Shown here: positions 15,001 to 18,000 of the stretch, in pieces
How the letters are laid out: each line of letters begins with the position of its first letter
How positions within the stretch are numbered: the first letter of the stretch is position 1
IMG/VR virus record: IMGVR_UViG_2671180673_000002
Direction: 5' to 3' (one strand)
From: a virus
Taxonomy: Duplodnaviria; Heunggongvirae; Uroviricota; Caudoviricetes
DNA length: 19,302 nt
Position numbers: made by a program

Positions 15001-18000
15001 CCACCGAACTGAAGTGCAATTCGGTGATCGAGTTCACTGTCACAGAGGTCAACCACACGACCACAGAGACGGCACTGCCCGGCGTCCCTGAGCCAGATAT
15101 GACGCTTGAGGGAAACACGTGCACTGCCACTGACACGACGCTGTTCACCCTTCAGAATATTCACCCGTCGGGTATTCAGTGTTTTGATTCTGCTCTGGAG
15201 TGTACGAAGCTCAGCCATGTAAAATCCCCGTCATATGGCAATCAGTAAAGGAAATAAATATGTCATCGAAAAACCGTACCCGCAGAACCACAACCCGCAA
15301 TATCCGTTTCCCCAATCACATGATTGAACAGATCAACATCGCCCTTGAGCATAAAGGGTCCGGTAACTTTTCAGCGTGGGTTATTGAAGCCTGCAGGAGA
15401 AGGCTGGCAACAGATGCAACGCATCTGCGCCCGGCCAGCATGACAAATAACGAGAAATGAACGTTCGGTTACAGGAGCAGGTACCCACTGTCCTCCAACA
15501 ATATTTCATCTTCATATCCGACGGAACAATACTTACCCTGCCGGGATGTACAGAATAACAACAGAGTGATAATTAATTTCTGATGAAATAATCAGTGTGC
15601 AGAAGGACTAAAGATAAACGTTTTCTTCACGCCTTTACACGGCCTGTCCTTCTCAAATCGCCATTTTGCCATCGCCTTTACAACCTGCTCATCAAACAGA
15701 TGGTGCGGCTCTGAACGAATAAACTCAATTCGGGTGACAGTACCATCAGCACCAATATCAAACCTCACATCAACCCGTCCCTTTATATAATTTGCCGCTG
15801 CATAGGCCGGATATTGTGGTAATGCCTTAACCAACTGTCGGGGCATATCTGTTTTATGTTGCGTACAGCCCATAACCAGAGAAGACAACAAAATAATTAA
15901 CGGAAGATTTCTTTTCATTTTCATTCCCCGCACAGATAAGAATAAGTCTTATTCTAACAATGCCGCCCTGTCGGTCATCAATCCTCTGCTTAATGGCAAC
16001 GACAATTATCCGACTTAAATCACAAATCAGACACATGACATAACAGGGCTTGCGAGGTAACACATCGTCCTGTTTCTTCCACCATCGCACCGGACTGGCG
16101 ACTATGAGGGGACAACGCCGCGCTCCGTTAACGCGGTAAACCCCGGTGTGTATCGTTTTTGATTATCCCCGCACACTCGCGCAGAGGAGTCTCCCTGTCG
16201 GGCTGCGGTCTCTGTTAATGAGGGAATACAGCGACGATACGGCGCATCAGCAAAACTTAGTTCAGGCACTGAGTGCGGATATAGTCCTGTGCCCCTTCCA
16301 GCTGCTTCTGCATTGTCATCAACCGTTCTCTGAGGATGAAATAATCCCGTTCAGCGGTGTCTGCCAGTCGGGGGCCGGTTGCATTATCCACGCCGGAGGT
16401 GCCGGTGGCTTCACGCACGGTACCGGAGCAGGTGGCGTTGATCCGCAGGCGCTTACGACCAGCGGCAACATCAGCACGCAGAGTTTCATTTTCAGCTCTC
16501 GCATCGGCTAATTCCCTCGAGTATCTGGCATCAAGTTCAGCGACATCACGCTGGCGTATCTGCATATCAGTAATTGTCGCGTTCGCCAGTTTCAGCTCAC
16601 TGACTTTTTTATCGCGCTGCGCTTTGTAGGTGATGGCGTTATCGCGGTAATGATTCAGCCCCAGACTAAGCACACCACAGGCTACCAGCAGGACAATAAT
16701 CACCACACACAGAACACGGTTCATATCACCACCAACGGATTGCCCAGACCAGAACAGCAATGGCCACAATACGAATGGCAAATGCCATTGCCCGAATAAG
16801 TTCAGCACTCATCTTTTTAAAGTTCACGATTTCAGCGCAATGACCAGTTTTGCCAGCCCATACAGCATCGGAGACACAGCAATACCAACAGCCACCCACT
16901 TAATAGCAAAAGCCAGCGCTCTGCTGATGTCATCAGTCACTGTCACCCCAGCAGCCCCGACGAAGACAACATCACCCAGGCGAGGGACAGAAAAAGAGCA
17001 ACCAGCATTAGTGAAAATGAAATACCGACAATCACACACAGGACCTTTGCCGGCGTTATGAGTTTGTCTGACATAGCTACCCCTTAATTGCCACAATTAA
17101 CTGGGATACTACCCATAAAAAAGGGATGCTCCAGACCAGCAAAAATTTCCAGTTTGGTAATTGACTAATCATGAGTCGCAACTCCCTAATCAGTTTGCTA
17201 AAATCAATCAAGGCAGCCTCCCATAGCTTACTGCCATAAAAACAAAACCCCGCTTGCTGCCAACAAACGGGGTTTTTACTTTTATTCACTTACATTTTGC
17301 CAGTTCGCAGGATTTCGTGTTATCCGTCCGCCTTGGCCAACGTCATTTATTAGCAAAATATTCTGCTTATCTGTCGATTCCCCAGCACGCCAGCGCGCTC
17401 TCCTGGTCACGACGGGATACCTGACCGTAACAGTTATTTGAGCGAATACGGCAGTCCCTGCCACCGTCCTTAATCCACCAGCGAATCGCCTCACACGCTC
17501 CCCTGCGATCACCTGCATTAATTCGTTTATAAAACGTCGACGGAAAACACTTACCGGGGCCAATGTTGTACGGACAGAATGACGCGATCCCCGCTTTCTG
17601 GGGTTCACTCAATGGCACTCTGATGTTTTTCTCCACCCATGCCAGCGCCTTATCACGCTCAATGGCGTTAACCCGGTCGCATTTTTCCTTCGACAACTTC
17701 ATGCCCGGAACGACAGGTTTGCCATCCACCAGGATGGCACCGCGGCAGATGGTCCAGATACCCGCGCCATCACGGTATGCCGTGGTGTGGTTACCTTCCT
17801 TTTCATCCAGAAACTGGTCGAGAATGTCAGGCGCAGGCGCACCAGCGGCAATCAGCGCCAGAACGGCAGCCGACAGGCCGTATCTGATTTTTGCGTTCAT
17901 GGATATTTATCAGGATTTATCGGTTTCTGCCCACGGACAGGTTTATCTGTTCCGGTCAGTGACTTAAGGTTGTGATTCCGGAGGAGTCTTCAGAGAACCA

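Follow-up and report, generated by a model that had tools for sequence, protein, structure and literature searches.

A prophage lipoprotein gene with a TonB C-terminal domain, inserted downstream of the lysis genes of a lambdoid prophage, and its possible role as a TonB decoy

Introduction

The DNA analysed here, a stretch of 19,302 nucleotides (nt) from IMG/VR virus record IMGVR_UViG_2671180673_000002 (hereafter 'the window'), comes from a lambdoid Escherichia coli prophage, and its positions 15400–16300 are 100% identical to several RefSeq chromosomes. We describe a small minus-strand gene located just after the lysis genes of this prophage, which encodes a predicted outer-membrane lipoprotein whose mature part is a single TonB C-terminal domain (TonB_C). 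Many phages, group B colicins and microcins enter cells through TonB-dependent transporters, as do siderophore-conjugated antibiotics such as albomycin and cefiderocol. An initial annotation of the window proposed that the product of this gene might compete with host TonB for such transporters, and that a palindrome upstream of the gene might serve as its operator.

Results

The gene and its signal peptide

The minus-strand open reading frame (ORF) extends over 15592..15933 and would encode 113 amino acids (aa) if the GTG codon at 15933 were used. We favour the ATG at 15918: it is preceded by GGGGA at a distance of 6 nt, and the same start is used for the identical protein in RefSeq (WP_000828071.1, named 'TonB family protein'). 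The resulting product is 108 aa in length. The features of the gene, with the evidence for each (HMM, hidden Markov model; AF2, AlphaFold2), are as follows.

15592..15918, minus strand: coding sequence, 108 aa plus stop, predicted outer-membrane lipoprotein with one TonB C-terminal domain (ORF, HMM, RefSeq)
15607..15843, minus strand: TonB C-terminal domain, residues 26–104, equivalent to E. coli TonB 153–231 (phmmer, AF2, Foldseek)
15865..15918, minus strand: predicted lipoprotein signal peptide (residues 1–17), with lipidated Cys18 and with Thr19 at position +2 (lipobox rule)
15925..15929, minus strand: Shine-Dalgarno-like GGGGA, 6 nt before the ATG at 15918 (direct sequence reading)

Residues 1–18 (MKRNLPLIILLSSLVMG followed by C18) conform to a PROSITE-type lipobox rule, which asks for a basic n-region, a hydrophobic core and [LVI][ASTVIM][GAS]C within the first ~35 residues; the corresponding elements are a basic MKR, a hydrophobic NLPLIILLSS and the lipobox LVMG directly preceding C18. 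Cys18 is invariant in 13 diverse aligned relatives, so that the exported protein or lipoprotein suggested by the initial annotation can be read as a lipoprotein. Sorting of lipoproteins between the inner and outer membrane is governed by the Asp+2 rule. The threonine at +2 therefore predicts sorting to the outer membrane, and aspartate is found at that position in 0 of the 13 aligned family members.

The mature protein is a TonB C-terminal domain

The initial annotation had named a profile search as the test of its TonB_C assignment. In that search the protein matched both Pfam TonB_C PF03544 (E=9.7e-15, 55.2 bits, cut-off 24.6) and TIGR01352 (E=7.6e-15, 55.0 bits, cut-off 27.1). Using phmmer, E. 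coli TonB residues 153–231 (PDB 1U07, 2GSK and 2GRX) aligned with the protein without gaps, at an E value of about 1e-15 and 38% identity.

An AF2 model calculated from 13 family sequences displays the alpha-beta-beta-alpha-beta fold of solved TonB C-terminal domains, with a mean predicted local distance difference test score (pLDDT) of 86 overall and >95 at residues 31–100; it replaced an earlier run on just 6 close sequences, for which pLDDT was 61. Residues 19–27 are modelled as a disordered tether. Foldseek superimposes the model on BtuB-bound TonB (2GSK_B) with a template modelling (TM) score of 0.94 and a root-mean-square deviation of 1.0 Å, and on FhuA-bound TonB (2GRX_C) with a TM score of 0.92. 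The best structural matches are all TonB domains, and the C-terminal domain of FusB is among the best of them.

The family keeps P161, the YP motif (Y163 and P164) and G186, as well as an aromatic core consisting of F180, F202, W213, Y215 (as F or Y) and F230 (all in TonB numbering). Across the 13 aligned sequences, Y36, F75 and W86 (numbered as in the prophage protein) are invariant and only F or Y occurs at positions 53 and 88, with single exceptions at P37 (L in P0033) and at F103 (M in P0105). The beta-3 strand, which in the solved complexes 2GSK and 2GRX pairs with the transporter's TonB box, is also present in the family. V225-V226 of TonB are replaced by basic residues, and the tail that follows beta-3 comprises 4 residues, versus 8 in TonB.

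The protein is nevertheless not a TonB. All five TonB equivalog models (NCBIfam PRK10819 and others) score it at 49–74 bits versus cut-offs of 265–448, and the match is limited to the last ~80 profile positions. The N-terminal anchor that couples TonB to ExbB and ExbD and the proline-rich spacer are both absent; there is no room for either in a 108-aa protein made up of a signal (residues 1–18) and a domain (26–104). Energy transduction by this protein is therefore impossible.

Family, prevalence and selection

The window's allele belongs to what we term subtype A, found in 415 of 5426 complete E. coli genomes (7.6%) and also in the Stx1a-converting phages JLK-2012 and Lys8385Vzw. A sister subtype, B, is ~70% identical to A and is present in 1225 of the same 5426 genomes (22.6%); its carriers include phage 21, ev017 and the LF82 prophage Perceval. 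One or the other subtype is thus carried by ~30% of complete E. coli genomes. The initial annotation saw no recognised gene at this position; this does not hold, since RefSeq, phage 21 ('TonB C-terminal domain protein') and LF82 Perceval ('TonB fragment') already carry TonB family or fragment labels.

The ratio of nonsynonymous to synonymous substitution rates (dN/dS) between the subtypes is 0.10–0.19, at dS 1.2–2.2, and the gene is under purifying selection. The window's allele has Cys94 (15637–15639) and His108 (15595–15597), whereas Arg94 and Pro108 characterise P0001, the commonest subtype-A cluster with 395 member sequences; Cys at position 94 is also frequent in subtype B.

An exhaustive HMM search returned many proteins of ~107–133 aa that combine a lipobox with a single TonB_C domain, at 33–45% identity. 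The lipoprotein signal precedes the domain in 13 of 13 aligned relatives and in 12 further lipoprotein sequences from viral contigs, while the small homologues P0104, P0106 and P0158 appear to have an ordinary secretory signal instead. When P0039 was used as the query, no match was found among viral contigs. The homologues on viral contigs are again located after lysis genes or before terminase genes. Others occupy apparently non-phage chromosomal loci in Serratia grimesii (L139, 3992–4318), Raoultella (L136 and L137) and Erwinia (L138). The S. grimesii copy is flanked by a CxxCxxCC-domain gene and dsbB-nhaB. These chromosomal copies suggest that bacteria themselves may use the same device.

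The promoter and an allele-specific palindrome

A promoter scan predicted a sigma-70-like promoter on the strand of the gene, with the following elements at and around it.

15973..15981, minus strand: −35 region, TTGATG at 15981–15976 overlapping ATGACC at 15978–15973 (promoter scan)
15951..15959, minus strand: extended −10, TGT-TAGAAT (promoter scan; identical in the subtype-A variant L086)
15939..15955: candidate operator, the perfect 8-1-8 palindrome AGAATAAG-T-CTTATTCT, which extends from the −10 to about +6
15935..15953: Fur-box-like 19-mer, GATAAGAATAAGTCTTATT, with three NATAAG hexamers arranged forward-forward-x-reverse, at the same place as the Fur boxes of relatives

We compared the promoter with that of L086, a subtype-A variant whose gene differs from the window's at dS 0.37. 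TTGATG is unchanged in L086, while ATGACC reads ATGATC there (C15974 is T); from C15974 through the spacer to the −10 there are 7 changes in ~16 nt. The 33-nt block CATTGTTAGAATAAGACTTATTCTTATCTGTGC, in contrast to the ~10 changes expected at the synonymous rate, has 0. A functional promoter followed immediately by a constrained element is expected to leave such a pattern of conservation. More distant relatives have TGTTAGTAT at the −10 position.

Since the moron that contains the gene (described below) has its own predicted promoter, production of the protein in the lysogen is possible. Expression in lysogens is known solely for the subtype-B homologue LF82_160, whose expression exceeds the local background 8-fold in LB-grown LF82 lysogens (PMC9928086). 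The same source includes the LF82 'TonB fragment' in a table of morons, and reports that Perceval also carries the iron/manganese transporter genes sitABCD (PMC9928086).

The palindrome is perfect in 75 of 81 subtype-A loci. In subtype B it is lost and just the −10-like part is left. It is unique in 41 kb of the same prophage, even at 3 mismatches, so it was rejected as one of a set of repeated phage-repressor operators (single copy at ≤3 mismatches); its 1-nt loop, AT-rich composition and position upstream of the gene led us to reject a terminator or RNA hairpin as well. Set against the consensus sites for ArgR, Lrp, NagC/Mlc, Zur, LexA and CRP, it differs in spacing or in its arms. Its chance expectation is 0.22 per window (the initial annotation gave 0.3), and with three other perfect palindromes in the window such sequences are not in themselves rare here. 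The palindrome is a candidate operator of this allele: the operator proposed in the initial annotation does lie in operator position, overlapping the −10 of a conserved promoter, but it is conserved only within subtype A, and its leading candidate identity, a Fur operator, derives from relatives and not from the palindrome's sequence.

Two further elements were observed in this region. The block TTTGTGATTTAAGTCGGATAAT, at about 16003–16024 on the minus strand upstream of the promoter, is common to subtypes A and B despite ~70% gene identity. An antisense promoter-like site, CTCACA-16-TATAAT (10/12), lies inside the TonB_C gene at 15764–15791 on the plus strand and is probably due to chance, since promoter-like sites in the region are no more numerous than in shuffled sequence.

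Fur boxes in relatives

Distant relatives have canonical Fur boxes either right after the TGTTAGTAT −10 or 10–60 nt before the start codon. These boxes, a new observation, are listed here.

L089 and L097: TTGATAATTATTATCAA and TTGATAATCATTATCAA
Raoultella (L136): TTGAGAATTATTATCAA
L098–L103 and Serratia (L140): TTGAAAATCATTATCATT
Serratia grimesii (L139): GATAATGATTTTCATTACC, 17/19 and 22.6 bits, the strongest of the family
Klebsiella/Raoultella type: TGATAATGTTGATTATCA

Sites were scored by their agreement with the Fur consensus and with a matrix derived from eight classical Fur promoters of E. coli K-12; the best consensus scores within those promoters are 12–16/19. The boxes of the relatives reach 14–17/19 or 16–23 bits in at least 5 divergent lineages, values attained by control windows at a frequency of ≤0.008; the Klebsiella-type box reaches 10.7–12.3 bits (p about 0.02). 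The site in the window has 13/19 matches to the consensus (p about 0.04–0.10) and 4.9–5.9 bits with the K-12 matrix (p about 0.15). The K-12 matrix does not support its assignment as a canonical Fur box, though the consensus count lies within the range of real sites. Recent capture of E. coli tonB together with its Fur-regulated promoter was also considered and rejected, as there is zero nucleotide similarity to the tonB locus. These promoter sequences lead us to predict iron regulation across the family, and the operator in the window would be a Fur site that has either diverged or been re-specified.

The gene lies in a moron downstream of the spanin genes

The insertion that contains the gene and its neighbours are as follows.

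15471..16065, minus strand: moron, a 595-bp insertion made up of promoter region, gene and a 121-nt tail (phage comparison, GC content)
15260–15460, plus strand: DUF3950 YlcI/YnfO gene, convergent with the TonB_C gene
15919–16256: 338-nt gap between the TonB_C gene and Rz
16257–16724, minus strand: Rz (PF03245)
16319–16504, minus strand: Rz1 (PF06085), embedded in Rz
17367–17900, minus strand: lysozyme

The boundaries of the insertion come from phage vB_EcoS-569R3 (L087), which aligns with the window at 15100–15470 and at 16066–16247 and has zero sequence between the two; the gene therefore sits in a 595-bp insertion at 15471–16065. Its GC content is 42.4%, versus 55.8% for the window, and falls in the lowest 0.3% of 595-nt windows. 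A block that is present or absent between conserved neighbours and deviates in GC content is classic moron anatomy, and the moron slot downstream of Rz named in the initial annotation is confirmed by the Rz and Rz1 genes identified upstream. The same slot is used for homologues in phage 21, a Klebsiella phage and uncultured prophages, and holds bor in lambda and phage 21.

Gene order along the minus strand is lysozyme, Rz/Rz1, the TonB_C gene, (the plus-strand DUF3950 gene), HNH endonuclease, small terminase (TerS) and large terminase (TerL). Given the late-gene strand and the lack of a predicted terminator after Rz, late lytic expression is also probable. No terminator-like site was found in 15200–16400, folding of the 146 nt downstream does not exceed that of shuffled sequence (z=0.55), and Rfam RNA families gave zero matches anywhere in the window.

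The DUF3950 YlcI/YnfO gene interrupts a late region whose other genes are on the minus strand. Its retention in the phage that is without the TonB_C gene places it outside the moron, and we read its product as a putative ribbon-helix-helix DNA-binding protein.

Three inverted repeats elsewhere in the window were also noted. The perfect 18-bp palindrome CAGTTAACATGTTAACTG (14743–14760) is located in a 290-nt gap between the HNH endonuclease and small terminase genes, where we would expect the cos site of HK97-like phages to lie, and by that analogy it is a candidate terminase or cos element. The GC-rich inverted repeat GGGAGGCG-tg-CGCCTCCC (10306–10323) directly follows the stop codon of the capsid gene (10340–12277, minus strand) and has no T-run; it may act as an RNA stem-loop that sets the ratio of capsid to downstream transcript. 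The perfect 19-bp palindrome TAAAGTTACCGTAACTTTA (18246–18264) lies within a YdfR-family ORF just downstream of the holin gene.

Discussion

A proposed mechanism: an unenergised TonB decoy

We propose that the gene encodes an unenergised TonB decoy that occupies TonB boxes and thereby reduces entry of TonB-dependent phages, colicins and microcins, and assign this reading a probability of slightly less than one half (about 0.45). The lipoprotein would be held at the inner face of the outer membrane, where its ~8-residue tether would bring the entire TonB C-terminal domain up to TonB-dependent transporters on their periplasmic side. The domain could then dock on the TonB boxes of FhuA, FepA, CirA and BtuB, and perhaps on those of group B colicins. 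Having neither coupling to ExbB/ExbD nor a spacer, it would dock without pulling, and boxes occupied in this manner would be closed to the real, scarce TonB. Phages, colicins and microcins that depend on TonB would then be expected to enter less readily by energy-dependent uptake, and the uptake of siderophores and vitamin B12 would suffer to some extent. In most relatives the Fur box would switch the protein on during iron starvation, when the transporters are most abundant; in the allele studied here that site is instead occupied by a different perfect palindrome.

The competition model of the initial annotation is plausible: the AF2 model superposes on TonB bound to its receptors, and the TonB-box-pairing strand is retained. 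The decoy reading is the best supported of those considered here in view of the protein's fold, its predicted anchoring, the preserved beta-3 strand and two precedents (Howard 2001; Llp/Cor). We infer an outer-membrane location, TonB-box binding, an exclusion phenotype and the regulation of the lipoprotein; the sequence analysis itself establishes the domain, the lipobox, the moron boundaries, purifying selection, the pattern of promoter conservation and the relatives' Fur boxes.

Several observations weigh against such a decoy. Three residues assigned by genetics and structures to the TonB/TonB-box interface are replaced in the family (R158 by K, T or S; Q160 by L, Y or others; R166 by a near-invariant Tyr), so the partner or the specificity may differ. 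If the decoy acted generally, it would deprive the host cell of iron precisely when a Fur-controlled promoter fires, which is paradoxical, and the Fur-boxed chromosomal copies hint at a housekeeping, iron-related role over phage exclusion. The tip of the prophage's J protein shares 99.5% identity with the VT1-Sakai tip and 54% with lambda J, and no cor gene is present in the prophage; nothing therefore suggests that the prophage itself uses a TonB-dependent receptor. PADLOC defence models gave no meaningful match, and in the full-text literature we found mentions of the TonB_C lipoprotein family at the level of annotation only, with no functional study. Self-exclusion through the phage's own receptor was considered separately and is unsupported, given the VT1-Sakai-type J tip and the lack of cor.

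Alternative functions

The alternative that survives best is an accessory role in iron acquisition or homeostasis, in which the TonB fold would bind a substrate protein, TonB itself or ExbD, and so aid or tune TonB-dependent uptake. The canonical Fur boxes of relatives and the non-phage copies in Serratia grimesii, Raoultella and Erwinia all fit such a role, as does the company of sitABCD in the subtype-B prophage Perceval. The replacement of Q160, R158 and R166, with a conserved Tyr at the R166 position, fits it too, and FusB, whose C-terminal domain ranks among the best structural matches, is a TonB homologue that binds ferredoxin. We nonetheless consider this function unlikely. With no link to an energy source the protein cannot drive transport; E. 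coli lipoproteins with this sorting signal face the periplasm, where there is no external substrate; and no conserved partner gene was found beside the TonB_C lipoprotein gene among the loci compared.

A lysis accessory, acting in the manner of a spanin with Rz/Rz1 at the outer membrane, would account for a predicted outer-membrane lipoprotein encoded on the late strand immediately downstream of the spanin genes, and the best PHROG match (phrog_1267, E=5e-42) belongs to the lysis category under the label 'Rz-like spanin'. We read that label as a positional mis-annotation, because intact Rz and Rz1 genes adjoin and the fold is that of TonB; the error is likely, and it will propagate into phage genome annotations. 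A complete Rz with its embedded Rz1 already serves this prophage, and the protein is a TonB domain as opposed to a proline-rich Rz1. The gene is moreover a separable insertion, lacking in otherwise near-identical phages where Rz/Rz1 are retained; a promoter of its own is predicted, its sister subtype is expressed in lysogens, and relatives occur in non-phage loci. A role in lysis is accordingly very improbable.

Least probable of all is a functionless piece of bacterial tonB acquired by the phage, which would explain why just the last third of TonB is covered and why older labels read 'partial' or 'fragment' (such as 'partial tonB-like membrane protein' in EDL933), but which is opposed by a dN/dS of 0.10–0.19 that excludes a decaying fragment, by the lipoprotein signal and invariant Cys in all 13 aligned relatives (though the signal of P0104, P0106 and P0158 appears to be an ordinary secretory one), by a conserved promoter, by the lack of any nucleotide similarity to the E. 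coli tonB locus and by carriage in 1225 + 415 of 5426 E. coli genomes.

Significance

The annotation of the gene, its TonB domain and the moron status of subtype B were already known; the text of the phage 21 genome announcement is silent on its TonB_C gene. New here are the definition of the family (a lipobox plus a single TonB_C domain, in Enterobacterales phages and some chromosomes), the boundaries of the moron, the anatomy of its promoter and operator, and its prevalence.

Were the decoy reading correct, a prophage gene that damps all TonB-dependent entry would explain differences in sensitivity from strain to strain, and, because ~30% of complete E. coli genomes carry either subtype, would represent a widespread unrecognised factor in sensitivity to colicins, microcins and phages. 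By sacrificing some iron and B12 uptake the bacterium would gain protection from TonB-dependent phages, group B colicins and siderophore-microcins at a time when the receptors are derepressed. Competition in the iron-poor inflamed gut would be affected and sensitivity to siderophore-antibiotics possibly so, with relevance to phage therapy and to siderophore-conjugate drugs. The gene would also add a third receptor-level route of exclusion to those of Cor and Llp. Its presence in phage 21 and in Stx1a-converting phages makes it accessible in standard strains, and the Fur boxes of relatives provide a clear regulatory prediction. We regard as doubtful the broadest version of the proposal, namely that temperate Enterobacterales phages, along with certain chromosomes of Serratia, Raoultella and Erwinia, encode an outer-membrane TonB mimic that is induced by iron starvation and gates all TonB-dependent transporters.

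Comparison with known systems

The closest known counterpart is the C-terminal domain of E. coli TonB itself (residues about 150–239), which has the same fold and order of secondary structure elements, in addition to the gapless 38% identity. The prophage protein differs from TonB in having no anchor or spacer, in its predicted lipid anchoring at the opposite membrane, in the replacement of Q160, R158 and R166 and in its shorter tail.

An overexpressed periplasmic TonB domain inhibits iron import via TonB-dependent transporters, according to the summary of that work in PMC9841981 (Howard et al. 2001, J Bacteriol 183:5885). Engineered fragments of this kind likewise consist of the exported C-terminal part of TonB without its anchor; they are, however, soluble and overexpressed laboratory constructs, whereas the prophage protein is natural, diverged and predicted to be both lipid-anchored and expressed from a regulated promoter of its own. 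In the 2001 experiments of Howard, Herrmann, Stratilo and Braun, a periplasmic TonB fragment reportedly also blocked phi80 infection and killing by colicin M.

Lambda Bor occupies the same genomic slot, and phage 21 carries both bor and a TonB_C gene; Bor is an unrelated lipoprotein encoded on the opposite strand. The stx1 operon joins a Fur-repressed promoter with late read-through. Relatives of the TonB_C gene resemble it in combining a Fur box with a late-strand position, while the site of the present allele is a weak Fur match.

The phage lipoproteins Llp and Cor reside in the outer membrane and target FhuA at its periplasmic face (bioRxiv 10.64898/2026.03.26.714494). Cor (of phi80, N15, HK022 and T1) and Llp (of T5) are small and located in the inner leaflet, and they act on a TonB-dependent transporter, as is proposed here. 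They are specific for FhuA, act allosterically and are encoded beside tail genes, whereas the gene for the prophage protein follows lysis genes and its product would be expected to recognise a generic TonB box. No relation in sequence or fold to Cor or Llp was detected; Pfam searches at E values up to 1 gave only TonB families. By analogy, the TonB_C lipoprotein may work similarly to Cor and Llp despite being unrelated to them. If the decoy model holds, it would achieve receptor-level exclusion of the Cor/Llp kind by mimicry of TonB itself.

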